A DNA stretch of 63,627 nt, counting the filler, from Sluysia triapertura (taxonomy: Eukaryota): the NCBI GenBank assembly GCA_046118255.1. It is 4 parts of 4 records of this genome, joined end to end, with 100 filler letters (N's around TTAATTAATTAA, not from the genome) between each part and the next. Parts side by side here need not be neighbours in the genome. Positions count along the whole stretch, not along the records: positions 1 to 12,863 come from JBJNIA010076939.1; positions 12,964 to 28,538 come from JBJNIA010224573.1; positions 28,639 to 51,921 come from JBJNIA010208479.1; positions 52,022 to 63,627 come from JBJNIA010182868.1. One strand, given 5' to 3'. Below the pieces are notes generated by a model. It was not told the origin of the DNA. It saw nothing but the letters and a program-made list of their open reading frames with translations, and did no database searches. Shown here piece by piece: positions 1,300-63,627 of the stretch. The position numbers and the translations under genes were made by a program. How positions within the stretch are numbered: the first letter of the stretch is position 1; each line of letters opens with the position of its first letter.

Positions 1300-2195
1300 G
1301 TAATATTAATAATAACAACAAAATGTTATTATCATTATTATTACTAACTACATAAACCCTTTGTATTTGAAAGCTTTCTACACGATCTTACTTTTATGAG
1401 TCTTAATTTTCTCAACATATTAAATTTATAAAAACCGATACCTTAAAGAATTGTGAGACTAATATTATAAAATAATGTGTGAAATGTTTTAAATGAATTT
1501 TTAAATATTATCTACTAATTTTAGCTGAAGATAAGTTTAGATGTTAAAAGCCTATGATTTAAGTATTTTAAAATAATACACGTGTTTTTAGATGTTAGTA
1601 GGTCGTGGGTTAAAAGCATGTTGAAAGATAGTAGTATCGATGATGAAAAAAGTATAAGTTATAGTCTATCTTTTGGTGTGTTCAAAAGATGCTTATAGAA
1701 TGTTGAACTGTGATTTATTGACTTAATGTTTTTAAATAGTGATGTTTTTATGTGCTGTTGAAAATTAAATGATGCAGATCATAAGTTTAGAATGTTTTAA
1801 TTGCTTTGAAGATGTCTGTTAGTCAATTTCAGATTGTAATTGAATTGTTGAGAAATGAAGAATAAAATATTTTAGATGGATTTTTTAAATAATTTAAATA
1901 ATAAATGTTATGAGATTGTAGGTTTAATTGATTTTAACGGATAAAGATGTTTTTAGTGGATGTAAAAGAGATAAAGATGGAAGTGTTAAAATGTTTAAGA
2001 GAATGGTTTTATATGCGATGTGTTGATTTAGTTTAATATTGTTTTATGTTGATTTTAGAATGTAAAAGGTAGGTTTTGAAGGTGAGTGTTATGCTGGCAA
2101 AACTTATGTAAAATGAATGTTTTTGATGAGTGTTTTGGGAAATATGAAATGTGAGTTTTAATAAAATTTATTAAGGTTACATGTTGGCCACCACA
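1300..2195 (-). mobile_element. Arm of TGTGGTGGCCAAC-ended element
   Basis: GTTGGCCACCACA at 2183-2195 closes a G/T-rich, C-poor stretch (on +) of about 850 bp that begins at an AAT/ATT-rich run. The end matches 40690-40715. Confidence 0.55.
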
Positions 2196-2410
2196 CTAAA
2201 CACAGTCGTTATTTAGTTTATTTAACTGTTATGATTTCAGATTATTATTTCTATATATTTAAAACTTTATTTTAGTAAACAATTAAATTAATCTATGTTT
2301 ATAATAAATTGTTTGAATTATGAGATCAAAAATGTAATATTTAATTTTTCTTTTGTCAATAATATTACATTATGTTACTAATTCAGAATAATAATAAAAT
2401 ATATAATAAA

Positions 2411-2950
2411 CAACGCCGGATAAAGGAGAGGGCATGCCGGGGCGCCGATATAAAAATAAAATACTTTTTTAGATTTTATAAATTAAAATCGATCATTTTT
2501 CATGAGACATCGATTTTTTTAGCAAGCAGTAAATTTTTTCTTTAATAATACCAAATAAAGGTCACAATGCGCTAATTATTTTAATATTGTGAACTGTTCA
2601 CAAACTGATTTTCAAAAAAATTAATTTAATTAACTATGTTATTGAATTTCTGACAAATAGCATTACAAAAAATCTTTTATTCCAAACGTATACAACAGGA
2701 ATAGCATAACTTACTTTTCAGAATTCTTGCTCCGTGACTCAAACTTCAAACGCGCTCGTCATGTTATTCCATATGTTGTATCGCTTGTTGTATTATTTTT
2801 TTAAATAAATAAATATTTTACACAGTTCTTTATTGTGTAATTTTGATTATTTGCCTTTTTTTAATTCGCAGTAAATTTGTATATTCTTGTATGAAATGGC
2901 GCCAAATTTTGTTTTGGATCGGGCGCTCGAAACCCTAGATCCGACAATGA
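2411..2950. mobile_element. Degenerate hAT-like MITE
   Basis: GC-rich ends CAACGCCGGATAAAGG...GGGGCGCC and GGGCGCTC...CCCTAGATCCGACAATG form imperfect CA..TG terminal inverted repeats in AT-rich background. Confidence 0.4.
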
Positions 2951-2969
2951 TAATAAAATAATAAATTTT

Positions 2970-3335
2970 TTTCGAATGTTCATATTAAAAAATAAAATGA
3001 ATATCCAGAAAAATTATATTTATTATACCTATTTATTACAATTTTTATTTCTTTGATAAAGTCTGTGATTATTAATGGCCTAGATGCTTTTTCTTCTTGA
3101 ATTTCATCAATTAGATCCCATATTTTGCGTACTCAAAGGCTTCCACCTCTTCAACAGAATTATCATTTGTTTCCTCTTTTTCAGAACTTTCTTTTTCATA
3201 CTTCTCTACTAGATCAAATAAGATATGTTCATCAAATTTTGGATTAAAAATTTTCCCTGAAAACCATATGGTTTTCAATAATTTTTGACTTAAATGTTCA
3301 TATTAAACTCTGTTCATATTAAGCAGGGTTCAGAT
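2970..3335 (-). mobile_element. pogo/Tigger-like transposon remnant
   Basis: Repeated GTTCATATTAA subterminal motif around an acidic, frameshifted coding remnant ending ..IITDFIKE*, like Tigger transposase C-termini. Confidence 0.3.
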
Positions 3336-3757
3336 TGAACATGATTGAGAGTCTAAATTATATATAAAAATACTAATTATTATAAACATACTATTAAATA
3401 TTTTTAAGATTAAAAATTTAGGAATAGTAGAAGCATAATTTCCATTGATTATGGTATATCAGAATAATGCATGTCATGAAAAGAAAAAAAAGTTATTTAA
3501 GTTTCCTTCATGATTTTGCACACAATCAAATTTTTTATAGTGACATTTTCAAAAAAGGGTCGACCATGCCAATAGATTTTAATTAATTGTAAAATAAAAC
3601 GTGGGAAAGATATTGAATTTAGGATGATTTTTAATCGCTTTATTGATTTTGTGTTTGCTACGAATTAATTACTAGTTGGCAGTAAACGTGTTAAATAGAA
3701 CTGATTTAAAATAAAAATGATTTTGAAGTAATGGTAAAATTTTTCGATGTACTAGTT

Positions 3758-4033
3758 CAGTGATTCTCAACCACTATGCCGCGAGAATCTTGAAGTTTGC
3801 AGCCACTACTACTCATAAATGCATATAACTACTACAGCTTTAATTACTTCCCTGTAATATTGCGTATGTAGTCTACTAGTTGACAGATTGAAGTGCAGTT
3901 CTACAAAATAAGTTATAGGTGGATCAATCAATTAAACAAGTGAAATTCTTTTAAATTTATCTTAATGTTGCTTTATTTTATCGCCAAATTATTTTGTTAT
4001 TTGTTGCGACAAGAAAAAGGTTGAGAATCACTG
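3758..4033. mobile_element. hAT (Buster/Charlie-type) MITE
   Basis: Perfect TIR CAGTGATTCTCAACC / GGTTGAGAATCACTG. Left flank tacTAgtt fits the Buster nnnTAnnn target, but the two 8-bp flanks no longer match. Confidence 0.85.
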
Positions 4034-4393: not shown

Positions 4394-7239
4394 CCACTGA
4401 TCCGCCAATCCTTAGAATGTCGTGATTTGATTGATGAAGCTAAACTGTACCATTTACGACCAGATGTACGTGCTAATTTAATGAAGCAATCCAATGAACG
4501 ATTTTGGTCAAGAACTGAAGCTAGTTCAAATCATTATATGGTATTAGTAGGTGGATTCGGAGCAGATCAAGCACCTATTAGTTCAGTAGAAATATTTGAT
4601 CCTCGTACATTTAAATGGGGCACATTACCAGTTAGAATTGTAATATGTTACACGAATTTACAATTAATTTCGTTATTCTTTATTTTTAAGCAGATTCAAA
4701 TTTCAAATTTAAATATTTAATTAAATTTGAGATAATCAAATTATTTATTATAGTGTTATTAGTGGATTTTATACTTTCGCTTTAATATGTTTAGTGATAC
4801 AATTCTATCAAAAATGAAAAGTAAAAAATAAATAAATAAGTAATTGAATTTGTTATACATATAAGACATAAAACATTAATTCTTTTGTATTAATAAATAT
4901 ATTTGCTGTAAGTGGCTTTAAAATAATTTCTGAAATGTAACCGCACGTTCCATTAAAAAGATAATTTACATTGATTAACTTTGATCTGATTTTGTCTTAT
5001 CAAGTTAATGTCATATTTATACAATTGATAATAGTTTTTTAAATAAATATTATGTTCCAAAAGACAATGCATCACAAAAATATTTACTTGACATAATTTA
5101 GAATAAAGCAAAATATTTTATGATCTTAACTAAGTTTTAATTCAACTATGCTTATTTCTTATATGGATTGCTTGTTGTATTATTATTTTTCAAAGAGATA
5201 TTATATTTAAAAAACAAAAATATTAACTCAAAATGCAGATATTAATTTTAGATTAATTTCAAAACAGAATCAGTAGAATTATAAAAATAATGACATTATC
5301 TTATTCTGAAAACTTTTTATCATAAATACAAAAGAAATTGTTAGATTCTTGAATTGAAGTAATGTTTATAAATATAAATAAAACTGAATATTTTCTTGTT
5401 ATTTGATGCATGATGATCTATTGGTAAGATGAATCAGGATTCGCCTATAGTAAGCGGTTTGTGTCCTAATGGATGGCACCCCTATAAGATTTTTGTTTCA
5501 AATGTGGTTTCTTAGTTCTAAGATTTAAGCTTATCTTACAAATTATGTAAATTTAAACGCAATATTAGAAATTAACTGATACCAAGTGCGTCGGGTTTCT
5601 TTGTGAGTTACTTGATCAAACCGACCATACATTGCCACACTAATTAGTAATACTAAAACGAGAAATTCTTATGTATCGGAATTTCTTGGATGGTTATTTA
5701 GTAGATTCTTTAGTTTTTACTGTCACTAAAGTTACCTTAGATGAGTATACTTTATATAATTATCAATGCACTTCTATTTTTATTTATTAAATACAGCCAA
5801 TTAACTTCTTGATGAACAAAACACGAAAGTAGGAAATTAAGTTCGAAATAGACAACGCAATTATACCATAAAAGCGCTTATAACAGAATTTGATAAAATG
5901 TAAATGCACAACTAAAAATTTTGCTAAAATTATATGAATTATTATTTCAATGAGCATCATTCTCTGTAAATAATTAATTAATTTATTGTTTTTGAGTGTC
6001 CTAACTTAATAAAAAATTTTTATTTTTATTGAATGAACGATAAGCCCTAAATTTCTTTTAAAATAATGTAATTGTAGTTATATACGTTTCCTATTAAAAT
6101 ACCTAAAAATGTTGAATGATTGATTTTTTATTGAATATGTTTGATATTAAATTGTTTGAGCAATCATAAAATAGTGAACCAACGCTAATCAATGTTTAAA
6201 AAAATGGTGAACCACCAAATTACTTAAAATGTGTGAAGTAATGGATGCTGATATTTTTGTAATAATCTAAGATAATTAATACCAATAATAAACATCAATA
6301 TCACTCGAATTTATTAATATGAGTAAACCAATATTTCGAAACGAAAAGGTTAAACGAATAATTATTTGAAAATTTCAAAAATTTAACAAAATATTAATTG
6401 ATTAGTAAATCGTTAATTATTATTTTAAATTTATTTTTAAGCGAAATTTTTACAATATTTTTATGTTTTGAAATTAAAACCTTCATGAATATTTTTAATA
6501 GTAAAGCTACCAAAAGTTAGTTTTAAAATATATTCATTTATTTCACAAATATTAGAAATTTTAAAAAATCAAGATTAATTTAAAATAAATCAAATATGTA
6601 CAGGAAGAAATAAATTTTAATAAATCTTTATTTGTAATATTTGACAATTTGGTTATTACTCTTTCTGTTTACTGAGTTTTATTTTTATTTTACTTCTAAT
6701 TTACTGTAAAAATTGCATAACTTTTTAAAACTATTATATACAGTAGACAACAAAAATTAGAAATGTTAATTTTTAAATTATTTACAATTAACACATTGTC
6801 ATACAATATTTAGAGTCTTCCTGGTCGATATCGCTACGTTGCAGCATGCTCTATTGGCCATTGTATATATGTTATTGGTGGTTTTGATGGAAAAGAAAGA
6901 CTTAATACTGTGTCTATGTTAGATATAGGTAATCAAGCTCAAGGATGGTGTGAATTAGCATCAATGAATTATAAACGTGGATTAGCAGCAGCTTGTGCTT
7001 TTAATGGTGAATTTTTATATGATTATTTTTATAATTGTAGGCAAAATTTATGTATGTGGCGGATTTGATGGTATTGCACGATTGAAGTCTTTGGAAGTTT
7101 ATGATCCTATCGAAAATATTTGGACTAGACAAATGAGTATGGATACGTCTAGAGAAGGTGCTGGATTAGTTGTCGTTGATTCGTATTTATACTGCATTGG
7201 CGGTTATAATGGAATGCAACTGTTAGACACTGTAGAAAG
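4394..7239 (+). CDS. KLHL12: Kelch-like protein 12 homolog, three internal exons (4394-4630, 6814-7006, 7041-7239)
   Basis: GT-AG splicing keeps the frame open. PLIRQSLECRDLIDEAKLYHLRP..VGGFGADQAPISSVEIFDP..RYVAA..IYVIGGFDGKERL..MNYKRGLAAA..REGAGLVVVDSYLYCIGGYNG matches the KLHL12 BACK end and kelch repeats 1-4. Second intron is 34 nt. 5' and 3' exons were not found in the window. Confidence 0.85.
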
Positions 7240-7448: not shown

Positions 7449-8930
7449 GTACGCATATATAATTATTTTATTTAACTGTGGTTTTATTTTAATTGAGGTC
7501 CTAAAATTTGACTGTCGTTTGACATTTGTGACCTTACTGGTGAGTAATGCTACAGGATTTTAACAAAATTTAACTAGTTTAGATATGACTGTGGCTGTAA
7601 TGATTAAAACATTCAATTCATCATTTTATACCCAATATTATTATTTCAAACATTTACGAAAATCTATTAATTCACATTCAATCATTCACTGTTTCATTTT
7701 CATCTTATAGACTTCCATACTTTTAATAACTTTCTCTGCATTAAAATTAAAAATTTTAAAATTAAATCAATTACAAAGATTAAATCCTTTTAAATTTTAA
7801 ATATTTCATTATTACATCATCATTATTATTGGTTTTATTATTAATATATAATATGAATTTTTATATATTATTTTCACTAATTCTAGTATATTTTATTATT
7901 TTTATTACATTTTATATATTATTTTAATTAAAAACCTTTGTACAAAATTTTTTGCTTTTTGTCTATTTCTCTGACGTTATATAGTATAAAGCTTTTAAAG
8001 TCAAGAGTAGTTAGGAAATTTGCAAATAAATATTCAATAAATTATGTCGCGCAATCAATAATGAGTTATTTTTCATTTTATAGAATTATTTTTACAGCTT
8101 TGATAATGATGCTTATTAAGTTTATGTTGAAAATCATAAAAACATTAGTAGCTTCTGTTTTAAAGAAAAATAAAGTAAATTCACACTTGTTATTGAACAT
8201 ATTTCGTCTGTTTTTACTGAATCAATAGAAAAAGTGAAGAAATCTGTTAAGCAATGATATATTTTAGTCGGAAATTTTTTAGTGCATTTTGATAGAAAAC
8301 CTTTTAATTTTTATTTCATCCTAAAAGATGATGACAATGATCCTGTAGCTTTTACAAATTTGTTTTATGTATAGTAAATAATGAATTTTTCTGAGCGCAA
8401 TATTAAAGTCCTTTTTGATCTATTATTATTGAAAATTTAAATAGATCTGATTTAAAAATGTGCTTGGAACTCATGTATAATATAAAAAATTAACAAATTA
8501 TAAAGATAAATTCCACGTGGATACTATTTATACAATCAATAAAAGTAGAGTTTACAATATTATAATATCAACCAAAGTTAATATTTTTGTTAGAGATTTT
8601 AAAATGGATTTTATATATGAAAAATATATCAAAGATTTTAAACCTTGATTTAATATAATTAAACTTAATATAAGATACTTAATTAAAACAATCTGTTAAT
8701 AAATATTTAGTCAAAATACCATTTTAATTGTTATAATTTTTTCCAACAAGGATTGCTATCCAATAAAATTTTCTGTTAACTAAATTTAATCTGAAGTTAT
8801 GTAAATAATTATTTTCCACTGAGTTTGTACGTATATAAATCGGCCTTTATTCCAAGTAAAATATCACGCTATTTACAAATAAATAATTTAATAACTGTTT
8901 AATAGACTTAAAGCCTAGATTTTACTATAA

Positions 8931-8987
<57 letters not shown>

Positions 8988-9014
8988 GTTGTTGTTGTTG
9001 TTGTTGTTGTTGTT
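8931..9014. repeat. (ATT)n(GTT)n compound microsatellite
   Basis: Directly visible. Confidence 0.95.
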
Positions 9015-9329
9015 ATAGAATGTTTAAGGTTAAGGATGCGAACGTTATAATTAATTGTTTAGGACCAAAATCGTTTAATGAATAACATTTTGATTTAAAT
9101 GGCGTTCAGAATTTGAAACACAAAATGCTAAATGTTGAAAGGTTTGATAAAGTTAGCGTAAAGAATGTAAAGAGATTATTTGATGATTTACGAATGTGGA
9201 GTACGAAGTGGATATAAATTATGTGATTTAACATGATTAAAATTAGAAAATTTCTTATGTGATTTGTGAATTACGGAGTGTTTGAGTAATTTGTGTTATA
9301 AATTGAGTCACCAGTCTAACAAAGTGATA

Positions 9330-9870: not shown

Positions 9871-11331
9871 GCGGCGAGAGCTAGATACAATTTTTCTAAT
9901 ATGTTATTGATACAATTTTTCAATTGTGGAACATTTTGAAACTAAACTCAGTATAATACATTGATGGGAGTTAAAATGAAAATGAATTTAAATCGAGTGA
10001 ATTTTACTAAATTTGAAAGAGCCCCTCATTTTCCTCAAAAGACTAATATCGTTGTGAATTATGAATTATATTGTTCTTATTCTTACAATATACTCGTGAA
10101 AATATTCTTGGTATGAATTAAAATAGCTTCTTGATATAGTATTTTGTTCATACATGGTGAACATCGTATGATAATCTATTTTCAGTCATTTCTTTATCAA
10201 CTGAATTTAATATAAACAATTTAATATTTTATTTTTATATAATAAAAATTCTTGGATTTAATAAGATGTATAGAACTTATATAAAAATCCTTAGTGGCGA
10301 TGAATTATTGCATATTTTTTTAGATTAAAGTTTTTCATATATTTTTGTCCAAATGAACTTTTTTATAATGCACCATAGTGTAATTTCACTTGTATTATCG
10401 TTCAACATAAAATTTGTTACAAAATTTGCAATTCCAATGAATTTTTGTTTGTAAATTTACAAATATTGAATTATAAAAATATAAACTCTATAAAAAATTA
10501 TTCAAATAAAGCTTTAAATATAAGTCGAACTTGTATTTAGTAAAATAAAATTTAAATAATTATAGCCAAAATAAATTTAATTTTATAAAAATGTGTTTTT
10601 AATATTTTCAAGTATTAATGAGAGTAGAGAAACTTTTGAGTGATGTGATTGGTTTGTTTATTTAGAAATGCAATAACGAAATGTTGTACTAATTTCTGTT
10701 TTAGAAAATAATTATACAGCAATTTTTTATTAGATTTTGCAGTTCATTTGTTTCAGGAAAATTAAAGATTATTTTGTTATAATAATAATTTTCTAAAAAT
10801 TTAAAATAAAATATACAGCACTTAATTTTAAATTAATATCACACTATTCAAAATTATAGTGCTTATTTAAATAAAATTTTAATTTATAGAAACAAATTTT
10901 TATGATGAATATCTACGATAAATTACTGATATAATTTATTATGTATTATATAGTGCTGCGTAGAAAAGTAATTATTTAATCAAGTAATTCATTGAATAAT
11001 GAATTTGATTAATCAATGGTGTACAATAACTATTATAATAATTAATAATTAATAATTAATAATAATAATAATAAACTCTAGTTATTTCGAAGGTATTTGC
11101 TAAATTTATAAAATCGTCACGACTAATTGTTTATTGATTGATAACTAATATTACATTCACTTCTAGACAGAAAAGTGCAAAAATTTAAAGAAGTATATTA
11201 GTTATCAATAAAAGCAAGAGTAGACTCTAATTTATAAATGCTAAAGTCATGGAAGTAATAAAAATGCGGAACCAAAATGAATGGCTTTACAAAATAAAAA
11301 TGCTGAATATTTTAAAAAGAAATGAAATGAG

Positions 11332-12863
11332 TTGAAGAATAGAAAAAACACCTTTATGAAGTTTGTCAAAAACGATAATGATAATGCTTTGGAAGTATCT
11401 TATCGGGTTAGTTATCTTATTGCTCAACAGGGTGAAGCGTATACAATCGCAGAAAAATTAATTAAGCCATGTATAAAAGATGTAGTTACTACCATGATTG
11501 GAGAAGAACATGCTAAATTAGTTGATTGTATCCCCCTTTCGGATACTACAATTTCAAGACGTATTAAAGATATGTCTATTTTTTGCGAAAAGGAACTGAT
11601 AAGACGTTTGCAAATTTCTGAATATGGATTTACTATTCAACTTGACGAAACTACAGATATAGCTGGATTAGCGATCTTGCTCGTTATTGTGAGATATATT
11701 CATGGAACGGTTGCTCAAGAAGATGTGCTAATTTGCAAAAGTCTGCCAACCAGAACAACTGCGGAAGAAATTTTTAATTTGATAGATTCATATTTCAAGA
11801 AGCAAGATATATCTTGGGATTTATGCCATCAAGTATGTACCGACGGAGCCAAGGCAATGCTTGGCAAATTGAACGGCGTAGTTGCACGCATGAAACAAAG
11901 AAATCTTCAAATGAAAAGTACTCATTGTTGTCTTCATCGACAAGCTCTTGCAGTAAAGAAAATGCCAGAAGAGCTAAAAGACGTACTTAATGATTGTGTT
12001 AAAATTATAAATTTTATCAAATCAAGGCCATTAAATTCAAGAGTTTTCAATTTACTCTGTGAAAGTATGGGAAGTTTACATAAAACACTACTGTTGCACA
12101 CAGACGTCCGTTGGTTGTCTCATGGAAAAGTGTTAGCAAGATTTTGCAAATTAAAAGATGAAATACGAATTTTTTTATTTGAAAATCAACCTCAATTAGC
12201 TCAAAAATTAAATGATGCTGTTTGGATTCAAAAAATGGTATATCTGGCAGATATCTTTACTTATTTTAATGAGCTCAACACATCGCTCCAAGGAACAAAT
12301 ATCAATATTTTCAAAGTACAAAGTAAAATTGACGCTACTTTATTAAAATTGAAATTTTGGGCAGACTGCATTTTAAAAGGAAATATTGAATGCTTTCCTA
12401 ATTTGCACAATATTTTAGTAGACAGTAACGCTACTCTCGATAAAAATGTAAAAAATAATTTAGTCCAGCATTTAACGGATCTGCAAAAAACATTTGTTGA
12501 ATATTTTCCTCCTCAAAAAGAAAAACTATCTTGGATTCAAAATCCTTTTCAAGACTGCGACACATCTGAACTCTCAATACAAGAAAGAGAACAACAAATT
12601 GATATAGCGACTGACTCTGAATTGAAAGTAAAGTTTAATCAAGTTGATATCATGCACTTTTGGATTGACATTAAAAATGAATATCCAGAAATTGCTAAAA
12701 GAGCTGTGAAACATCTAATGTCCTTTGTATCTACATATATATGTGAAAAATCGTTCTCTTTGTATACTGCTACAAAAACCAAATACAGAAACAGATTGGA
12801 TGCTGAAGATGAAATTAGATTGCAAATTTCAACAATTATTCCCGATGTAAAAATGCTTTGCGA
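11332..12863 (+). CDS. hAT transposase, Buster/Charlie (ZBED8/GTF2IRD2-like) family
   Basis: Open for more than 510 codons with PLSDTTISRRI, QLDETTD, CTDGAKAM, HCCLHRQAL, RWLS, YLADIF and STYICEKSFS motifs. N-terminus is disrupted and the 3' end runs into a gap. Confidence 0.93.
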
Positions 12864-12963
12864 NNNNNNNNNNNNNNNNNNNNNNNNNNNNNNNNNNNNN
12901 NNNNNNNTTAATTAATTAANNNNNNNNNNNNNNNNNNNNNNNNNNNNNNNNNNNNNNNNNNNN

Positions 12964-14329: not shown

Positions 14330-14783
14330 TTAAGCATCATTATTTATAAGTAATTGAAAAAGTTATAATGAAAGAATGTCATTAATTATAATATAAATAT
14401 ACTTGATAAAACTTTTGTTACTTTTAATAATTACGTTAATATCAACAATTTTCATTAATGAATTAGGTGAAATTTCAATTTCTTGTGAATTGATGGTTTT
14501 ACTTTTATTACGAGTTTCATGATTAATTTTAACGAATAAAATTTAATTTTTTTATACGCATTAACGATGTATTGAACTTCATCACTCATATTCATATTAA
14601 GTGGATAAAAATTTTGCAAGTTCCAATTTTTTAATTTCAATAATTAATTGATACTCTCGCGAGGTTTTCAGACGTTCGTATAATGTATTGTCAATTGAAC
14701 GTATAAACTATAGTGATGATAATAAAAATTTTTTAAATCATTATTGAAATAGTTCTTCATAAGTATAAGAACGTTAAGATTTA

Positions 14784-14876
14784 CTAAAATTGTGTCCGAA
14801 TAAATTATGACTAAAATTGAATCTGAATAATTTATGAATAAAATTGAGTCTAAATAATTTATGACTAAAATTGTGT
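14784..14876. repeat. 27-bp minisatellite, about 3.5 copies
   Basis: Unit CTAAAATTGWRTCYRAATAAWTTATGA. Confidence 0.85.
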
Positions 14877-17819
14877 TGCTATTTAATTTAAACTGCCAGA
14901 TGCTTAATTTGTCATCTAATCGAAATTTTATTGGCTATTCAATAATTGTCTTTTTTGAATGGAGCCAATGTATCATTTTTTAGCACAGATATATCACAAT
15001 ACTTACACAAATAATCATTTAGAAATTTAATGGAATAATGATAATAATAATGATAATGATACTAATAATTAATAACGATAAGAATAACAATAATAATAAT
15101 AATGAAAATGTAATAATAATAATAATAATAAAATAAACTGTTATAATCAAATTTATAAATATAAACTTAATTCTTCTGTTGATTCATTAACTTAGAAACA
15201 TAAGTAAAACTTTCACTAACTCTACTTAAACTTTTCACTTCAAACTTTGTACTTTGTTCATTTTCTTTATGTTACTTTTGTCATCCATATTTTCACTCCT
15301 ATTGTTATTTTTATCAACTTCTGTGATATTTAATACAGTAAGTGATTTAAAATTTGAATCCAATTCTTCATAATTTAAAATATTAAATGAAGAGTCTTCA
15401 TTTTTGATAATTTCATCATTAAATTTTAATTCTAATGGATTCGAATTTGTGGCTGAAGTCGATGAAACTGGTATTTGATCTAGTGGAAATGATGGTAATT
15501 CAAAATCTGATTCTTTGGGATACTATAAATTTATGCGCTGCTTGCATCTCCTTTTGTGATCTTCTAACAATATGTTATCATGAGAATCATTTTCGCTAAC
15601 CGATTGTTCTTGCTCCATGTCTTCAATTGGACGGTCAAGTTCTTGTTTTTGAAACTTATTATCTACTTCTCGTTTAAATAATTGATCTTCTACATGTTAA
15701 ATAGGTTCTTCAAGCTCTTGATTGACTAATACAATTCAAAAGGGATTTAACTGTTGTATTAATCCTTTTTTTAGATAAAGAAGTATCATGTCTGTGCGAA
15801 ATCATAGTGGAATGTGTATTAGATGAAAAATGGAAAGTAGGAAGGATATAATAAAAAAATATGAAAGAGAATTAATGAAGTTAAAGGTGTTAACAGAAAT
15901 TCCATTTAGTTTATTATTATTTTTAAATTTTAAGTATGAATTTAATGATTTTTGATGTAATGAATGGATTAGATGTAAAGGTATAATTTTTAGCGTAGTG
16001 TGATGTAATGAAATTCTCTGTGAAGATACTCTTTCACGGTGTTTCATCCTTGCACTCCACAGAGCACTGTGGCTGATAATGATTTGTGACGGGTGAGCTC
16101 ATTTGTCAAAGCTACTGCCGTTAGTAGATAAGCAGCATTGCGATTACTCATGTTTGTCCTATTCAGTGCTGCCGCAACTGTAGGAGTTACAACATTCACT
16201 GTCCATCTCTTCAAATGTCTTGCATTTTTTTGAAGTGAATGCAGTTTTTGAATCTGACGACGACAAAATGTTTGTGCTTTCGCTGCTCTGCTGGCTTCAG
16301 CGAAATTTCTCTGCTTGATTTCTATCTACCCCAGCCATGGAACCTCTGCGACCTTCTCTCAGTGCTGTCAAAAACAAGTGATCTTCCTCAATATTTAGCA
16401 GATCCGTGGCATTGTTATGTGCAATGTCAAACCGGATGTTAAGGCTTTTTTTTGAATTCTTGCTAAATTTTTATCTGACTTTCGGTTAATGAGTTTCTTG
16501 AGCTCTTGTCATTGAGTATGTAGTTTTCTTACTTGCTCCACTATGTGACTGGGTGCTCTTGTTGAAATTCTGGTCTTTCCCAGATTGGTAACAGCAACCA
16601 GGTTGATCATTTTGTCATGATTATGATAGTGGAATAGGATTCTAAAGACCTCTCCACGAGATGGAACTTGGAAATAGTAAAACTCCCATGCGTCCCATCG
16701 ATAAGCTAGATAGTATCTAGAGCTCGTGCCTTGACAGTGACCTGTGGTTGAATAACACAAAACTCCAATGTTTCCATTGTCAATCTGAAATTTAAATTAA
16801 TAAGTCAAGGTCTATTCTGTAATAAATGCAATATCATTACCCATTACCAAAAATTGTTTTAAAGCATTACACAATAGGGTTATTTAGCAGAAAATTATAA
16901 AATTCTGACAATATGTGCAGCACACAAAACAAAATGATTAACACTCACAGAAAAGAATATCAAGTTTTTAAATCTTTTTGTCCAAATAAGCAAGTACATA
17001 GGCATTATGACATTGCTTGAGGATATGGATTCTTAACAAAGTTACTGTGTTACTAACAAGCAAAACCGTATAATGGCATCTGTACAATTTCTCGTTGCGT
17101 TTCAGTTAATTGTGTAAGTCCTAAATATCAAAATAACTGAACAAACCTTTCAATAATAGTATTTATACATAATTTAGTACAAAACTACAGCTTGGAGAAA
17201 GCAAACAGAGAACATCTAATTTTTGCTATAATGCATGAGAGCACCCTAATATTACTTAAATATTAGAATATTGTAAAGATTTAATCAATACATTTGGTGT
17301 CAGAAATATGTCATCTTCTGCTATTATTAAACGTTTTTAGAATTTATTTTACGTTAATACATTTATTTGAAATTACATTTAAAAATACGTTTAACTGTAA
17401 AATGTAGATTTAAAAATCAAATTCATTGAGACATAGGTGTTAATTTTTGGATTTACACATTTCTTTAGATTCAAAGTAATTCAAATTTTTCGTTACTTTC
17501 GAAATTCTTTATAAAATCTTAAATATTTTTTTCATTTTTTAGTTTTTAAACAAGCTACGTCGTAATATTTCATGTTAATGTTGTGTTCCAATATTTTACT
17601 CAAACCTTTATTCCAATTTTAACAAATATTACCATAATAACAAATTAAACTTTAAACCCTAATCACAAACGTTTCAATAGTTCAACACATAAAATCTATA
17701 AAAGTTATATGGTTCTACAAATCATATTGAAATTTTAGCTGAATATCTTATTTTTAATTACATTGAATCCTTCGGTAGAGCTAACTTTGTGTTGAAGAAT
17801 GAAAAGATTTGTGATTCGA

Positions 17820-18275
17820 AAAATTTGAATAAGAAATTTAAACTGTAGAGTGCAATGCTAGTTTCGAAACAGAATTTGTTTAATCAGCAATGTGATGCCC
17901 TTACTGAAATCAAGCATATCAACAACAGTACATTGCGACAATAACAAAATAGAATCACCAATAAAAAATAAACCAAATGTATTTGTCGAAAAGAAGTATT
18001 GAAATATTAAAACAAACATGAAAGATTAATCTGAGAAGATAAACAAAGTAAAGATAAGTTTAATAACAGATAAATTATTATAAAAAAACATGACGAACCT
18101 CAATGTCACCAAGAAACAAAGAATTTAATTGAAAATAACCAAGATTTATTGAAGCACCACAACCATGAAGAAGCAGAACACAAATTATGTTATTACAAGA
18201 AAGATTACATATCAAACAAAAAGATATTTAGAACAACGAAAATACTGAAATATACAAAGATTTTAAATCGAATAA
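17820..18275 (+). repeat. Dispersed repeat (decayed ORF) shared with 33060-33510
   Basis: Shared blocks such as AAGATTTATTGAAGCA..GAAGCAG.ACACAAATTATG..ATATTTAGAACAACGA..AATACTGAAA.ATACAA. Both copies follow a TG-terminus arm. Confidence 0.7.
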
Positions 18276-46299: not shown

Positions 46300-47131
46300 T
46301 AGAACTAATAGGTGCAGTATTGTCCAAGAACTCGGCATGATTTTTGTTAAATATGAGTTTATCTTTAACTTTATCAGTCATTACTAAATTACTTACACGT
46401 TCTAAGTGATCATTAAGCATGTTTTGTTTAGCATCAATATAACTTATTTATTGAATATAATGATAGAAATAGCAAGATTGTCCAAATTTACATCATTCAT
46501 CCAATTCATTCAATTGGAATAGACATTGGGCTGTTCGTCTGTGTCTAAGAAAAATTCATACTTCTGTTGGTTTGAAGAAATACTGATTACTCATGTAATT
46601 GATGGAAAGGTACAATTGTTTGTGGTATCAAATTCGTTAAAAAGATAATCGTTAAATGTAAGCTGTTTGAATCCATGCTGAATAATCTACTGTAGTTTTA
46701 TTATCAAGAAAATCGACATTATATGAATCAGGATCTGACAAAACTATGCTCGCTATTGTACATCCATCTTCTGTAGAATCATACTTACTTTCATGGCCTT
46801 CATTACCGTTACGAGGCACGTCTGTAAACAGACATGAATTATGTGAAAGAATTTCATATTTTACGACTATCAATGTGTAATGTTCTTCTTTGAATTCGAT
46901 TATAATACAATCATCATTCTTTAATTGTCTTTTATCAAGAGCAAGACTTAGCCTTGTAGTATCAATTGAATTCGGTAGACATCTATTTAAAATAATTGAG
47001 CTTGGTTTTTCATCATCATTAAAATTATTCCATATGTGACTAAGTAATTCGATTAACGTAGAGTTTCTCTTAATTTCGATAACATTTTGTTTGACATCAA
47101 ACTTTAGTTTTAAACGAAGAGTTTCATCCAT
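46300..47131 (-). pseudogene. YOD1: YOD1/OTU1 deubiquitinase pseudogene
   Basis: Ubl-like N-terminus (LRLKLK..DCIIIE), then (D>H)NSCLFT..IASIVLSDPDSYN..L..Y.AWI matching OTU1 DNSCLF..IAQIVASDPDFYS..YCDWI. A stop falls where WGG is expected and the remainder is degraded. Confidence 0.8.
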
Positions 47132-47338
47132 TATAAAATATGATAGATTCTTTTATTATTTAAATAATTAAACCAAAATAATTGAATAGGATGAATAATT
47201 AAAGTTTTTCCTTAAATATAATATTTTAAAATATGTTTTTGGGGTAATCTAATTTTTTTACTTTGTACTTTTTAAAATCTAAATTTTTATTAGATTCCAT
47301 TTTTAGCTTTTTAATAGTAAAAATGTCAACGTACTCGT

Positions 47339-47532
47339 GATTGGGCGTCCTATAAAATAAGAAATTATAATATACAGAAATAGAATTGATAGGACGTCCA
47401 ATCAGATGAAACCAACAAAATGAAATGGTGGAATTTGTACAATAATGTATTAATTCGGTAAGCAACTGTCATCAGTCGACAGTTGATAAAGTAGTGTAAA
47501 ATGGTTTTAATTACGCTGTCGATTGATGACAG
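47339..47532 (-). promoter_or_regulatory. Double inverted-repeat module upstream of the YOD1 copy
   Basis: IR CTGTCATCAGTCGACAG 47466-47482 / 47516-47532 (16/17) and CCAAT IR 47339-47353 / 47389-47403 (14/15). Confidence 0.55.
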
Positions 47533-47559
47533 GCTATTTAATGAGGGATATTGATTAAA

Positions 47560-47942
47560 TGTTGAAAATAATGATGAAAGTGACTAAAGTGATGATAAAT
47601 AAAAATAATAATGATAATAAAAGTGGTTACAATAATAATAATTATAATAAAATAAATAAAATTAAATAAGATTGAATGTTGAAGAATTCTGAACTTGAAG
47701 TGTTTTGGATTGTTTTTAACATGTATCTTTGATAATTTAAGATGTAAATTGTGATTACAATGTTGTGAAATTGTGAACTAAGAATGTTTTAGATGAAATT
47801 TAAAATGTTATAAAGTTGTGAATTTAAAATGTTTTGAAATGTAAAAAGGTTTTAATAGATTTGCAAAAATATGTAAAATGTGAGAATATGTGATATTTCA
47901 TGTGAAGTAATTATTTGAATTTTATGTGAAAAGTTGGCCACA
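47560..47942 (-). mobile_element. Arm of TG-terminus element
   Basis: GTTGGCCACA at 47933-47942, G/T-rich arm, AAT-rich run on the inner side. Confidence 0.55.
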
Positions 47943-48601
47943 AGAATATTTTAAAATCTTTTGCTAGTGGTACTTTATACGATTGTAAATATAGTATAGT
48001 TTGTATTCGTATCAATTCACATATTGTATTTTCAAGTTACAAAGAAGATATAAAATTAATTGCTCAGTGATTACAAAAACAAATCATTAATATACCAAAA
48101 GTTGATGCGTTTGATTTTTCGTTTTTAAAAGCCTGATTATACAATTTTTATTATCATGTTTAGATATATTTGATTCAGCTTTTCCTGACTTAACTGAAGC
48201 CAAGCGATTGTATTATGAAACGGAAATATTTATTAAGAATCTTGAGAAAAGGTGCTCTTCTAAACGAACATTTAAATTTGAAACAGTTATAAATTTTTTT
48301 ACATTTTCTTAATATTAAAATTTCGAACAACGTTTATGATTAGTTTCTTAAAAACTTATTGCATGAGACTTTGAAGTTAATTCGTTTCGTGAAACACTCG
48401 AAGTCAGATTGTTGTAGAGCCTTGCAGAAATAGCCATGTAATCACCAACGCGCATGGTTGGTGCACCTTAAATAAATATTTGCCTAAACTGTTCGATCTT
48501 CCTACGACTTCAATTATTCTTTCTTCGCCTATATTAACATTATGTAATTTAAACAAATTTTTTTAAAAGGTCCTAAGTAAAATCATCTTTGCTGGTTCTG
48601 T

Positions 48602-49350
48602 TGTTGTGGCCACTTCTTCACACAACATTTTATTATATCATTATACACTAAAATAATACCTTTACAACACTTAAAATATTCACTAGATCAAAATCATTAA
48701 ATTTATATTTTAAAAATTTCAAAACAACAGTAAACAAAATGGAATTTCTTTTAACATTTCTAACGTCATTAAATATCTCTCAAGATTTCTCTTTTCTTTA
48801 ATTTTTTGTTATTCGTCCCTTTTCTCATTTTCTGCAATATCAAAACGCATATCCATCAGCATCATCCAAGTTCGTTTCAGAATCGAAGAAATGTCGAAAC
48901 TAAACAAAATATAGAGAAGAAAAACTATTTGATGATCACAATATTTTACCGATTTTGTGTCTACAGTAAGAAGTTACTATGTTACCAATAAATTGTCAGA
49001 TTTTTCACCGAAAGCAGCCGGAATGAATTATGATTCGCAAAATCGAGATTCAATTAACAAAGACGAATATTTAGATATTTTAAGAGATCGGTGGTCACCA
49101 GCATTAACTATTTCTAAAGATTAACTTTTAATATGCTCACTTATTTTATCAATACATCATTTTGAAAATTTTCAAAGAAATTCGTGGAGAGAGAATTTTA
49201 TGTATTTTTGTTTTTATTTTTATTTTATTATTACTAATTTTATTTTAATAATAATATTATTATTTACATTATTACAATTGTATTATCATTATTATTACTA
49301 ATTATTATTATTAATTATTATTTTCATTATTATTTTCTATTATAATTATT
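48602..49350 (+). mobile_element. Arm of TG-terminus element with embedded gene fragment
   Basis: TGTTGTGGCCAC start, C/A-rich arm, ATT-rich run 49200-49350, followed by CTGTCAAAAACGACAG. Confidence 0.5.
49050..49146 (+). pseudogene. Ubiquitin-conjugating enzyme E2 (UBE2D/Ubc4-like) fragment
   Basis: [31 protein letters not shown] versus Ubc4 [34 protein letters not shown]. The catalytic Cys is lost. Confidence 0.75.
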
Positions 49351-49686
49351 TGAACTGTCAAAAACGACAGCTTTTCATTTAAAACATATCTACTCGTCAA
49401 AAAATCAATTTCTATCCTTTTAGTTAAAATTTGCTTGGTAGCAGATAATCACGTTGATTAATTTTGTAATTTGCCAGGATCAGAAACAATTTATTATGCT
49501 CGCTCTTATTGACCAACAAAGTTAACGGAACTGACCACTCTATAATTGAATCCTTAACAGGCATATGACATTATTGACCAATCATTTTAATTCCAATTAA
49601 ATTGTTATTTTTATAACTAGTTCATTAGATAAAATTTCATAACTATAAAATTTGTTTGGTTTGAAAGTAGCTAAAAGTAAAGAACA

Positions 49687-50350
49687 ATGTTGGTGACAAC
49701 TTCAAATGCAAATATTTCCCAATTTCTAAATTCTTATATTTTTCATAATACAAATTTGCCTAATCAAGCTGCAAATTCTAAGGTTGTACGTCAAGAAAAT
49801 TTCAAACATTTACATTATTTAAATGATTTTCGAACTCAACAATGTCTATTACTTCTCAATCATAAATGTCAATCATAAAGACGATTCGCGCATTTTTATT
49901 GGCATTTTCTAAATCAACGTCGTCGTACACCAGTAAAAAAATCTGATGGGACATTCAATTACAATCCTGAAATTTATTGTACTTCATATGATGAAAACAC
50001 AGGAATTTGCCCAAATTGAGATAATTGTCAATATGTTCATTGAAACGCTGGAGATACGGAACGTCAATATCACCTACGCTATTATGAGACAGTGTATTTA
50101 TGAGACATCAAACACTAGTCAATGTGTTAAGAATGGTCAGCATTATGTATTTGTGCATGGAGTCTATGATTTACGACAACCGTTGTATTATATCAAAAAA
50201 GTTAATGACGCTGCCGAACATATGGCTAATTCCCTAACTAAGTTAGAAAAAGAACAAGCTCTAAGTGAAGAGATTGTACAGTATTTTAATGATTTGATTC
50301 AAATAGCGAGTTCTTCGATCAGTGGCTACCCAATTCAAATGAGTTAAAAC
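49687..50350 (+). pseudogene. UNK: Unkempt (CCCH zinc-finger RNA-binding protein) pseudogene, ZF1-3
   Basis: Read through the stops: HYLNDFRTQQC..HKC..FYWHFLNQRRR..DGTFNYNPEIYCTSYDENTGICPN*DNCQYVH*NAGDTERQYHLRYYET / CIYET..CVKNGQH..VHG..DLRQPLY, an unmistakable Unkempt match. Stops at 49876, 50017 and 50041, plus one frameshift. No introns in this span. Confidence 0.9.
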
Positions 50351-50655
50351 TCTTGTGTCCTCGGCAATTTATGCCTCACGATGATGACGAGAAGATTTAT
50401 TTAGAGGTATACTATTATATTTTACTATTAAACTATAATGATTATATGTTTTCCTTTTATTAAGACAACTAACTAGCATATGGACCGCAACCTCTTCAAA
50501 CATAAATCAACATTTACTATTATCTAAATTTTGTTTTACAAAATCCTTGCCATTTTTATTAGAAACAATATTTCATATATTTTTATATCAGAGATCTGGT
50601 TCATACCACTTATTGAGATGTCGTTTCCGTTTGAAAATTGTTAGACTTCGTAAAA

Positions 50656-50726
50656 TGGACTGACCGGGGATCGAACCCTGGACCATCGTCTGCGAAGTCG
50701 ATGCTCTACCACTGAGCTATCAGCCC
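50656..50726 (-). tRNA. tRNA-Ala(CGC)-like gene, probably a pseudogene or SINE-like copy
   Basis: Acceptor GGGCTGA/TCAGTCC with G3:U70, D arm GCTC/GAGC, TTCGCA anticodon loop one nt short, GTTCGATCC T loop, followed by TTTT. Confidence 0.7.
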
Positions 50727-51697
50727 CGTCTAACAACTTCATTTTTATTATATTCAATTTTACCAAATGGCACTTTTAGGCTTTTACCCCAACATAATGT
50801 TGAATAATTTATGAATAATTAAATCTGAAATTCGCAACAATTTTATGCTCTTTAATAATCATTTAAATTCGACCTATAATGTTAATAATAATTCAAAAAC
50901 ATTTATTAAACCTCCAAATCTGTTTAAATAGAACAGTAGTAAACTATCTACTAAATCTAAATCACAAACTCATTACACAATTTTAATTATTTATCATGTA
51001 AAAAAACTGTAATGTTTTAACAATAATAAAATCGTTTGAGGTTTTTTACAAGGAATCTTAATAAAATTTTTTCTATTTGTTGGTTCTGTTTAAATAGAAA
51101 CTTAGTAATCTAATTTTGCTTGAATTCGTAGAAAGTGAATTAATCAATTTAGCTATATATACTAACCCCGATTTCGCACATAAGAAAATCATAAAAAAAT
51201 AAATAATACATAAATAAGTTTGAAAGCTTGCATATAGATATGTTAGTATAAACATTTATGAATTTATGCAAATATTTTGTCTTTTAATATTTTATTTATA
51301 TTTTAAATATTTTGTTATTTAAAATATCTATATTTATTATAAAGTAAAATATAAATCATTAATTTTAAATAAATAAAATATAAATTATTAAACAAAAAAC
51401 GACTAAATTATAAATATTTTTAATAATTAAATAATAAATGTTTAAAAAATAATTTTATTTTAAATATTTTCAATTTTTGTATATAGACATTAAATTACTT
51501 TTATTAATTTCGACATTTAACAGTTAACAATTTTAATCAACAAAAATTTCAACGACAGTTTTGGAAGATCCATGATGTAGTAAGTCGGTTTTTTGTTAGG
51601 TTAGCTTATTCTTAAACTAAAATATCAACATAATATCAAATAATCTTCTGAATATTGCAAGAAATGTATAAAGAGTAGAGAGAATAAAACTTAAGAA

Positions 51698-51762
51698 TAC
51701 AAGTGAGTCCACCAACGTATTGGGCTTACTGACTAAACGGCCAACCGTTGGATTTTTTCGTA
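51698..51762 (-). ncRNA. Structured RNA motif, copy C
   Basis: TACGA-AAAAAT-CCAACG-GTTGG-CCGTTTAGTCA-GTAAGC-CCAAT-A-CGTTGG-TGG-ACTCAC-TTGTA. Confidence 0.55.
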
Positions 51763-52122
51763 AAAAGTAAAATGGAGGTCAAGAACTTACTCAAATAGTC
51801 AAAATTAAGATGCTAAAAGAATCCTCTAGATTGTAGATTAATTGAATATCAAAAATAAAATAAAATATCAAATAATTTAATAGTTTAACAATAATAAAAT
51901 AAGTGAGATTTTAGGGGCAAANNNNNNNNNNNNNNNNNNNNNNNNNNNNNNNNNNNNNNNNNNNNTTAATTAATTAANNNNNNNNNNNNNNNNNNNNNNN
52001 NNNNNNNNNNNNNNNNNNNNNTTTCCTTTGATCTTATAAGTAACAAGATAACAGACAACTCCAGAAGTGAGACAGATAAGTATAAGTTATAGGATTAATG
52101 TTAATTAAGCAAATCTTTCATT

Positions 52123-58436: not shown

Positions 58437-58437
<1 letters not shown>

Positions 58438-60520: not shown

Positions 60521-61449
60521 ATTGAACTGTTATGCACAGTGGACTATCAATGTGTGTTAAATTTTTATTTGATGATATTTTTATTATTAATTTTGCATTA
60601 TTGATTTAAGTATTATTAATTTTATATTAACAATTAAAACAATTAATACTTGGATTTTAATAACAATATTATTACTTTTGATTCATTAATAATATTTGGA
60701 TTAATTATTAAAAAAATCAATTTTTTTCACCTAACGTAAGTATTTTATTAAATAAAATAATTATAATATTTTTGTATTGTTTTAGTAAGACCACATATTC
60801 AGATGTATCACACATGTAACAAAGCTCTTAAAGAGTAGAATCAAAAATTTTTTAAAAATATTAGTTATAAGAAGACATTGAATACAGCCAGGATTTTGTT
60901 TTCTTTGAAGAAATAGTTTACGTTAGTTCATTTTATTGATATGAATTCAGTATCATCGTAAAATATACTTAAAATCTTCATTCTGTAAAGATTTGGAAAA
61001 CTTTTTAATAGTTTTCAGTAAAATACGATTTTTAAAAATTTCTTCATTTAAAATTAACTTTTAGTTAATTATCGTAAATTCATATTTATATCTATTGAAT
61101 TATTGTAATTAATTATGAATATATAATTAATTAAAAGAGGAGTTTTTATTTTTTAGAGTTTCAAAATCATAAACTTGCTACTGCATTAAAGCTTTATCAG
61201 AATTTAATTCTGATCTCGAAAAATCAATTTAGTATAAATCCTTGTCATAGGATTTTCGCAAACTATTATCATAATATAAAAATTTAATTTTAAAAAAATC
61301 ATTCGACCAGTTAAATATTCTAAAACCTTGAAAACCTCCGATTTACATTTTACCATTAAATTAAAAATACTTTGTCACTAAATTAGAACATACTTTGGAT
61401 AGAATCTAGTGGGCCTTAGCAAGTTACTCTCATCTTCAATTGAACTTCT

Positions 61450-61516
61450 TTATAAACAAATCCAACGGCTAGCCCTAACCGGTAAGCCTAGTGCGTTGGT
61501 GAACTCACACATAAGC
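61450..61516 (+). ncRNA. Structured RNA motif, copy E, in the leader of a gag element
   Basis: ACAAAT-CCAACG-GCTAG-CCCTAACCG-GTAAGC-CTAGT-G-CGTTGG-TGA-ACTCAC. Confidence 0.55.
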
Positions 61517-61770
61517 TTTACTTTATTTTATAAGTAAGAAACTCAGCAATAGAATTAACTCGTGCCCAGAGTGAGGACCAGTATTGAAGTAATATAAGAA
61601 TAAATATAAGTATTTAAGTATTTAAGAAGAATCTTTAGAATTTGTTACGATAAGTTAAATTTGAGCAAAATTATTATTCCCTAAGTTGATCATTAATGGA
61701 TTAAGTTTTAAGAAAAATAGATAAACAAATTGTACTATACGACGATTACAGATCAAAACTAAGAAATTAT

Positions 61771-63550
61771 ATGGCACTACCTAATGATTTTAAGGAATAT
61801 ATGGCTCAATTAGCCAGAGAAATTCGCCCAATAATGGCATTATCTGAAATGAAAAAATTTGACGGAACAGAGGAAGTCCTCTGCGATTTCTTATTCGAAT
61901 ACTAAAGCAAACGGCTGGAATGAAGCCGAAAAAGTAAAACGAATCCAAAATTATTTAACTGGAGTGGAAATAAGTAATAATAATAAATAGACATGGAATG
62001 AATTTTTTAACGCCTTTATTGAAGAAATAGCACTTGATTACATGAGAAAATATTATACTCTAGGATAAAAAAGCCAAATGAATCTGTATATGAATACGCT
62101 TGTGCTTTTAAAAGCCTTGTCGCCAGAGCTAAAATCCCTGAAGATAAAAAAAGAAATAACATTAATAGATAAATTAAAAACTGGGTTACGACCAGAATTA
62201 ATAACAGATGTCACCTTAATAGAAGGAGAACCTTTTAATGAAGTAATTAAGAAATTAAGAAGTATAGAGCGTTCCTATGTGTATAAAAAGAATAGTAAGA
62301 ATAATATTGATTATTTAAGTGGCAATGAAGACAAAGGAAATAAAAGTCCAAAATTAAGAAGAAATATAATTATGATAATAAATTTACTTCTCTGAATTAT
62401 GAAAGATATAATGACAGTAACTACAATAGCACACGTAGAAGCAATGATAATTTGAATTCAAATAATTATATAGGTAATTCAAACAATTATAAAAGTAACT
62501 CAAATAATTACAAAAGTAATTCAAGTAATTATAGGGGTAATACGAATAGAAATAGAGGTTACCAAATAAGTAATTATGGTGCCTCTAACTATGAATACAG
62601 ACCAGCACCGAGATGGCAACCCAGTTCCAACTTTAATAGGAATAGGAGTAAGAGTCCAATAAGATATGAAAGTAATAATAAAACTCAAACTAATATAGAT
62701 GGAGAAATAATCTGTGACAACTGCAATAAAAAAGTACATAATGCAAGAGATTGTAGGAAATTAAGACAAAGTGTATTTACTCAAGATTTTACTAAAGTAA
62801 AGGGTCAACACCAACAAAGATACCAAAGCCCTAATAGGAAAGTAAGGTTTAATAATAATAAGAGTAATAATAATAATAATAAGAGTAATGATAATAATAA
62901 GAGTAATAAGGGACAGGTAAATTATAACTATAGAAGTTAAAAAGATTATGGAAATAACAGAAACGAATACGAAGATGAAGATGAATTTCAGTATCGAGAA
63001 GAAAGAAATAGGACTAGAGGACAGCGAAGAAGCAGATGATAAAAATCTTAAGTTAATTACCGATGAGGAAAAGAATTCAATGCTTCGTGAATTTTATATT
63101 ACTGGATTAGATTGTGAAAAAAATAGATTTAAAAATAAACATGAAATCTTTGAGTTATAGGCACGATAGATATTTGGAATTTGAGAAGGATAAGCAGAGA
63201 AGGGAACATCGAGAAAAAGAAAATGGATTAACAATTCAACCAATTCAAGTTAGAATTCGAGAAATATTAAAGCAACCTTTGGAAAAAAGAAATAAAAGAA
63301 GTAATCATAAATGAAGATAAAATAAAAAGAATTCAAGAAATAATTGAATTCTGAAGAAATCTGAATCAAATAAGGTAATTGACAAAAAATAGATTTTGAA
63401 TCAAAAGAAAGTAACGATGAAATAGAAGAAACAAATGCAGAATCAAATTCAACAGAAGAAGAAACAAATCAAAAAGAAAAACAATCGAATAATGAATTAA
63501 GTGATGACCAAGAAGTAGAAACAGGTATAGAAAATATTATTAATAATAAA
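61771..63550 (+). mobile_element. LTR-retrotransposon (Ty3/gypsy-like) gag pseudogene
   Basis: MALPNDF..KKFDGTEEV / KANGWNEAEKVKRI..YLTG / IDKLKTGLRPEL capsid-like motifs, N/R/S-rich linker, and CDNCNKKVHNARDC CCHC knuckle. Multiple frameshifts, no pol seen. Confidence 0.75.
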
Positions 63551-63551
63551 G

Positions 63552-63627
63552 TGTAGTGGCCAACCCCATAATTTAAGCTTAAATATAACTCCACTAAAAC
63601 AATTTTAATCACAATCATACTATGTAG
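63552..63627 (+). mobile_element. Start of a TG-terminus arm (runs out of window)
   Basis: TGTAGTGGCCAAC followed by C/A-rich sequence. Confidence 0.55.

Follow-up and report, generated by a model that had tools for sequence, protein, structure and literature searches.

Retrocopies usually arrive promoterless, and SVA-type 3' transduction of a spliced gene provides a joining of 5' RNA to a gene copy comparable to the one considered below. Sadhu retroposons have a short 5' motif common to diverged subfamilies and target-site duplications (TSDs) of 7-16 bp (PMC2848041). We analyzed a 63,627-nt stretch of the Sluysia triapertura genome (the window), to which all tests were confined, with respect to a ~13-bp terminal motif that opens G-poor arms and in some cases precedes decayed copies of host genes. 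The motif marks the edge of a dispersed repeat that comprises at least three subfamilies, and we tentatively read its units as one-ended retroposon leaders. The G+C content of the window is 24.8%. Its coding content is animal-like, and it was assigned to an animal because Kelch, Unkempt, SIN1, MAPK and hAT transposase sequences are present.

Terminal motif, G-poor arms and repeat boundary

Variants of the motif had been proposed at 13 sites, and all 13 were located. Leave-one-out position weight matrix scores for 12 of them range from 8.0 to 25.2 bits; the motifs at 37432 (8.0 bits) and 7590 (below 8 bits, outside the match list) are at chance level as motifs, and both rest on their arms. At 14 bits or more the matrix detects 16 sites, training sites included, versus 2-3 in Markov controls, and TGYDGTGKYCMAC with one mismatch allowed occurs at six sites in the window versus 0.57 expected. 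Motif density is approximately one per 5 kb. A literal literature search with four 12-mers of the motif returned no mobile-element paper by title, which does not by itself show absence from print. Likenesses of the feature to a hammerhead, CTCF, a telomere repeat and an adenovirus origin were dropped after inspection by eye.

Arms were delimited by composition alone (C 20%, G 5%), using a model that is blind to the motif but was set after the arms had been viewed. The segmentation identified 15 G-poor, C-rich segments of 116-740 nt, as compared with 0-2 in each of 20 shuffles. Eleven of the 15 start directly behind a predicted motif, and the skew sets in within about 10 nt of it. The other four are Kelch exons with an AAT run, a motif-less arm at 15807-16026(-), part of a foldback repeat, and a segment at 36524(-). 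Two predicted sites were missed, namely 38936, where the skew is milder (C-G=18 in 150 nt, still in the top 3% of windows), and 63552, where the arm is cut by the window end. The C-rich, G-poor character of the proposed arms (pooled composition A 40, C 19, G 5, T 36%) is therefore real, their measured length being about 115-740 nt instead of the 150-900 bp first given, and the motif-less arm is a 14th beyond those listed. TCACA words are enriched in the arms (26 versus 6.5 expected).

Three pairs of arms are homologous. The arms at 42575-42732(+) and 44409 are 77% identical, and the 48602 arm is 78% identical to the motif-less 16026 arm. The arms of the units at 17579-18335(+) and 32618-32990(+) resemble each other with z of 4.8-5.3, and the A-rich sequence of the former is colinear with the latter, further down reaching 80% identity over 276 nt (18007-18269 versus 33241-33513). 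The 2195/47945 pair shows a weaker likeness (z=5.5). In all three homologous pairs similarity sets in with the motif, or with the arm in the case of 16026, and none extends into the 600 nt upstream, so that the motif is a genuine repeat boundary. Beyond the arm, 48602 and 16026 differ from each other, as do 42575 and 44409; 17579 and 32618 have the following sequence in common. Such varied continuations are typical of a mobile end that lies next to different neighbours, which bears out the part of the original prediction that described a dispersed end beside different sequences.

Host-gene copies and the promoter-like module

The window contains five decayed host copies, namely MAPK, OTU1/YOD1, Unkempt, SIN1 and a UBE2D/E fragment. 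Three coding neighbours could be identified behind arms (MAPK, YOD1 and UBE2/Unkempt), and all three lie in sense, so that the proposed sense copies of MAPK, YOD1 and Unkempt are all confirmed. The proposed order of terminus, arm, ATT run, palindrome and sense host gene is clean in two of the three units; in the Unkempt unit a UBE2 piece intervenes.

The MAPK unit opens with the motif at 2183-2195(-), which scores 25.2 bits when left out of the matrix. It continues through a 740-nt arm defined by the segmentation (1448-2182(-), the arm weakly like that at 47945), an AAT/ATT run with the ACCACTTTTA motif at the arm end (1292-1350(-)), a CTGYC-n-GRCAG palindrome (1221-1236) and an inverted ATTGG...CCAAT pair around TATTATAAT (1056-1123(-)). 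The MAPK copy (1-986(-), E 2.4e-10) extends toward the window start, with seven stops in its first 201 codons and no insertion over 110 aligned residues. The YOD1 unit comprises the motif (47933-47945) and arm at 47680-47945(-), followed within 47340-47665(-) by an ATT run with ACCACTTTTA, palindromes at 47516-47532 and 47466-47482 and an inverted CCAAT pair with TATTATAAT (47340-47402). Its OTU1/YOD1 copy (45700-47131(-), 3' limit set by eye; E 0.007) has a frame broken after codon 159. The Unkempt unit consists of the motif and arm (48602-48869(+)), the sense UBE2D/E fragment (49068-49151(+), E 1.8e-6) between the arm and the ATT run, and at 49198-49583(+) the ATT run, a palindrome (49355-49370) and a ATTGACCAA / TATAAT / CCAATC module. 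The decayed 5' part of Unkempt follows at 49687-50293(+), with three stops in 136 codons and a frameshift. This copy aligns gap-free with its homologue over 96 and 72 codons, ends near residue 227 of 820 and has no intron-size insertion; its best relatives are flatworm and mollusc proteins (64-67% identity over about 70% of the query), and these best matches supply no parent copy.

The SIN1/MAPKAP1 copy (40843-42170(+), 5' limit set by eye) has one stop in 328 codons and a 249-codon open stretch (CRIM E 3.4e-5, further match E 0.002). A search of a large protein set for sequences of near or greater length returned no homologue of this frame. The copy sits between outward-facing motifs, the nearest motif points away from it, and no module lies upstream.

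An intact Kelch-like gene serves as the control for gene structure. Its exons at 4394-4630, 6814-7006 and 7041-7239(+), of 237, 193 and 199 nt, are joined at GT-AG sites, with introns of 2183 and 34 nt between them, to give 209 open codons, and no further exons, earlier or later, were found in the window. A weak motif with its arm (7590-7822(+)), 350 nt past the last exon seen, is probably intronic, and another arm (8932-9315(-), motif at 9302-9315) ends in a CAA/AAT microsatellite. Since the host copies have no introns where aligned, whereas the Kelch gene is intact and spliced, they look processed, and they also look 3'-truncated, as judged against Kelch as the one control gene.

Palindromes of the CTGYC-n-GRCAG type occur four times in the window, where 0.025 are expected, each time ahead of MAPK, YOD1 or Unkempt, and ATTGGnCRTCC or its inverse occurs four times versus 0.075 expected. 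Counted from the first ATTG in MAPK, YOD1 and Unkempt, respectively, TATAAT lies at +35, +33 and +34, CCAATC at +63, +58 and +71, and ATG at +137, +271 and +180. CCAAT and TATA are promoter elements, and by its motifs the palindrome with CCAAT-TATAAT-CCAAT geometry ahead of these three genes is promoter-like. The module hairpins have a z of -4.7 and match no known RNA in an Rfam scan of the window, which returned one tRNA-like element alone. The module pattern was found in no viral locus and in 35 unrelated metagenome loci, and blastn matched none of the latter to the window. The promoter may belong to the element, as first proposed, or to the host genes: motifs and spacing of the module are common to the three units, whereas the spacers fail to align from gene to gene, and any part of the module follows just 4 of the 13 arms scanned. 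The unit at 44409-44755(+) has the motif, arm, an ACCACT motif, an ATT run and a degenerate palindrome, with no gene start after them. At the inner arm end of the MAPK, YOD1 and 44409 units AATAAA is present on the G/T-rich strand. A further promoter-like site, a CCAATC...GATTGG pair at 34941-34958, lies directly after an N gap and ahead of A-rich coding-like sequence.

Several other arms adjoin coding-like sequence. Behind the 32618 arm is an A-rich decayed stretch (33241-36200(+)) with an AT skew of +0.21 to +0.29; over 33300-34750 the skew is +0.29, nearer to that of a gag remnant (+0.27) than to those of the host copies (+0.04 to +0.08). A 164-codon stop-free frame (40099-40590(-)) lies directly behind a short arm (40576-40713(-), motif at 40701-40713). 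Protein and domain searches with the frames behind the 17579/32618, 40713 and 16026 arms returned no identity. For the read-through frame at 33684-34409(+) the best PDB match is a CDPK kinase over 139 residues (E 0.21, not significant), and it may be a dead host copy. Three by-eye readings were rejected: a hAT transposase at 33684-34755(+) and 40099-40590(-), with no matches among 1.84 billion representatives, no Pfam family and no Atlas lead, as well as a LINE (long interspersed nuclear element) endonuclease start at 34148 and a P-loop at 48002-48562(-), both without a PDB match. A transposase-like segment by eye, at 16047-16796(-), has 38% G+C and no Pfam support, and abuts the 16026 arm at the expected motif position.

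Possible one-ended retroposition and its alternatives

The best reading, which we hold as possible rather than probable and whose class is unproven, is that of a Sadhu-like, LINE-mobilised one-ended retroposon leader joined to processed host copies. The motif would be the 5' end of an old, much diverged non-autonomous retroposon family. Each one-ended unit would comprise the motif, a G-poor leader and, in some cases, the ATT run, palindrome and CCAAT-TATA module. Transcription would start at the motif, and the RNA may read through into a downstream host promoter and gene, be spliced and be cut short (3' transduction); alternatively, a template jump could link leader RNA to a host mRNA copy. 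A LINE enzyme would then insert the chimera by target-primed reverse transcription, leaving target duplications of 13-15 bp. On this view, the members of an inward-facing pair would be separate insertions, lying side by side or nested, instead of the paired ends of a single element. The RNA route is favoured because the cargo looks processed. The copies are dead today.

Direct repeats were sought post hoc as a downstream copy of the outer flank of each motif at 12 sites, with 2,969 random anchors for comparison. A 14/15-bp repeat (48588-48602(+) and 51076-51090(+)) encloses the arm, UBE2 piece, module and Unkempt in 2474 nt (p 0.0047 per site), and a 13/13-bp repeat (47945-47957 and 47220-47232(-)) encloses motif to module in 713 nt (p 0.029 per site). 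Each repeat terminates at base 1 of the motif. The joint p for two such repeats among 12 sites is 0.014, and a Fisher test over all 12 sites and three offsets was not significant (0.085 and 0.30). AATAAA occurs shortly before 51076, the other candidate has an A-rich end, and the copies are old. The two repeats are suggestive only as candidate target duplications, pointing to LINE-type retroposition of one-ended units; the earlier statement that there are no TSDs holds at the paired ends and is qualified by these candidates elsewhere.

Several points weigh against LINE-type retroposition. The best direct repeat alone has p 0.055 after correction in a post hoc search, 10 of the 12 units have no such repeat, and the 47945 repeat consists of A/T only and would place YOD1 beyond its unit. 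Neither repeat has a clean poly(A) tail ahead of it, the final 30 nt being 40% and 57% A, and no LINE enzyme was identified in the window. The host copies retain their 5' ends and lose their 3' ends, the reverse of ordinary LINE-made copies, and the intron argument rests on one control gene without parent genes. Finally, 10 of the 13 motifs start with TGTNR, the pattern of integrase-cut ends (PMC2836005).

This last feature is accommodated by LTR (long terminal repeat)-mediated retroposition, in which motif, arm and module would be the U3 part of Gypsy-type LTRs that were joined by template switching to the 5' ends of host mRNAs and subsequently disrupted. This route characteristically yields partial, 3'-truncated and multi-gene retrocopies (PMC5131818), a description that UBE2 with Unkempt matches. 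In addition to these features, the CCAAT and TATAAT elements, the latter at a fixed spacing of +33 to +35, recall a U3 promoter, and the motif and arm start at 63552-63627(+) directly follow a gag-like remnant (61436-63551(+)) with a CCHC knuckle (Pfam E 0.04-0.08). The remnant has a PBS (primer-binding site)-like site near 61560 by eye, and its frame has no viral relative. However, its own LTR-like segment (61436-61508) belongs to another repeat, being found also at 51703-51776(-) and, by eye, near 52137. No cargo lies between two homologous direct arms, inspection detected no polypurine tract (PPT) before and no PBS after any arm, and the search for solo-LTR ends (CA with a 4-6-bp TSD) gave scattered A/T-rich matches alone, none at a shared position. 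We consider the LTR route unlikely.

It is also doubtful that no capture took place, and that a mobile promoter cassette, or an ordinary housekeeping promoter module, accounts for the pattern, with cassettes having landed beside existing pseudogenes in AT-rich promoter-proximal DNA. Consistent with such independent landing are the exclusion of YOD1 by the 13-bp repeat, the unaligned module spacers, the SIN1 copy with no module and its nearest motif facing away, and the two arms where a Kelch intron is expected. On the other hand, the downstream sequence common to the 17579 and 32618 units suggests co-mobilisation, the arm, the UBE2 piece and Unkempt all lie between the two copies of the 15-bp repeat, and processed copies should lack native promoters unless these were read through from upstream.

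A Pack-type DNA transposon (MULE, Ginger or hAT-like) whose terminal repeats are short and whose left and right subterminal arms differ, capturing genomic promoters and 5' gene pieces, is quite improbable. Pack-TIRs, which are named for their terminal inverted repeats (TIRs), occur in animals (PMC8277862), the TCACA words could be transposase sites, and four inward-facing pairs of 1.7-4.8 kb are present, as had been claimed, among units that include 37037-37432(-) (weak motif at 37419-37432) and the mildly skewed 38936-39120(+). But strand alternation of the motifs reaches just 9 of 12 neighbours (p=0.07), and their order across gaps is unreliable, since three 100-N linker gaps (12864-12963, 28539-28638 and 51922-52021) and two sized gaps divide the window into pieces. 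The 100-N gaps contain a TTAATTAATTAA stop linker and are probably artificial contig joins. In five of five inward-facing pairs tested the arms are not homologous past the motif (z -0.7 to 1.0), which leaves no TIR. No exact TSD was found at the ends of any cited pair, where just 4-5-bp A/T-rich matches occur, shifted or at non-partner ends. A scan for TSD partners gave 2 matches among 102 candidates, the level predicted by chance; one of them, with 4 bp that would close a MAPK unit of 1085 nt, was discarded accordingly. No transposase was identified behind any arm in the window, in agreement with the original prediction, and the rejected hAT reading includes the frame at 33684-34409. Because the inward pairs share neither an inverted repeat beyond the motif nor a target duplication, the Pack-TIR reading fails, and with cargo that looks processed the feature is most likely not a two-ended DNA transposon. 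What survives of the gene-capture idea is a repeat end with sense host copies and a common module, without the Pack-type anatomy.

A non-mobile chromosomal signal, in which the motif would delimit a strand-asymmetric process (a zone of antisense termination, an insulator or a site of programmed breakage) at native genes decayed in place, would fit the motif density, the onset of skew close to the motif and the AATAAA at inner arm ends. It is very improbable given homologous arms with unrelated flanks, one arm type ahead of different genes, a motif beside a gag remnant, and the presence of an intact spliced gene next to dead copies.

It can be speculated, although we regard this as unlikely, that the units form a portable promoter cassette whose many lineages keep one 5' motif, G-poor leader and palindrome-CCAAT-TATA geometry under selection while spacers diverge, with each lineage joined at the 5' end to another processed housekeeping mRNA. 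If true, the family would generate promoter-equipped retrogenes across the genome (from at least three host genes within 64 kb), and a promoter-like cassette repeatedly ahead of processed copies would show a gene-duplication route in an animal lineage. With 14 arms and five decayed host copies within 64 kb, the density points to a considerable influence on the genome. Interest is limited by the fact that all copies are dead, similar routes are already in print and the class is unproven.

Other repeats in the window and comparison with known systems

Among repeats distinct from the motif family is a 512-codon open hAT transposase frame at 11326-12861(+) (Pfam Dimer_Tnp_hAT E 1.9e-7; Buster/Charlie-like by eye), which runs into an N gap and has no motif or arm adjoining. 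A 276-nt miniature inverted-repeat transposable element with perfect 15-bp terminal inverted repeats CAGTGATTCTCAACC lies at 3758-4033, upstream of the first Kelch exon seen. A tRNA-derived repeat resembling a short interspersed nuclear element is present in two opposite copies (50640-50796 and 18413-18539, 80-94% identity; Rfam tRNA 50656-50726), the copy at 18.4 kb having an internal deletion. A foldback-like inverted repeat (23062-23710 / 24622-25219, 80% over 675 nt) is accompanied by nested direct and inverted duplications within 24117-26113, and a 27-bp tandem repeat occupies 14783-14873 (3.4 copies, 87% matches).

Bat Helitrons with promoters and retrogenes (PMC4224331) resemble the units in being enriched for promoters and the 5' ends of genes, in containing nested retrogenes and in lacking TIRs, but the ends here are TG-type. 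Inspection of flanks and palindrome contexts revealed none of the Helitron features (5' TC after A, 3' hairpin and CTRR). Ginger1 and Ginger2 (PMC2836005) share the TGTNR start, whereas the units have no 40-270-bp TIR, 4-bp TSD or integrase. Like Pack-TIR and Pack-MULE elements (PMC8277862), the units have host-gene pieces beside repeat ends in several copies, with host-derived sequence internal to them; they differ in having no long TIRs, no TSD at paired ends and cargo that appears processed.

LINE chimeric insertions and transductions (bioRxiv 10.1101/2025.02.02.635956) similarly join 5' RNA to another RNA copy within one TSD of 10-30 bp, although here the 5' part is a repeat other than U6 or Alu, and no LINE 3' end or A-tail is shown. 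LTR-mediated animal retrocopies (PMC5131818) do not have their counterpart here in LTR-element sequence on both sides, twin LTRs, a PBS or a PPT. They agree with the units in being partial, mostly 3'-truncated and intron-free, in two-gene chimeras, an adjoining promoter and a TG-type end; the partial, intron-free, sometimes two-gene cargo was recognised in the window.

Relative to Sadhu of Arabidopsis (PMC2848041), the leader here is G-poor, measures 115-740 nt and is linked to host-gene copies, no poly(A) tails are apparent, and the TSDs are candidates only. A TATA/CCAAT module can follow here, while Sadhu is without TATA. The two systems are alike in a short conserved 5' motif, followed by a composition-biased patch, across diverged non-coding subfamilies, in a one-ended structure, and in a partner enzyme that is not evident in either.

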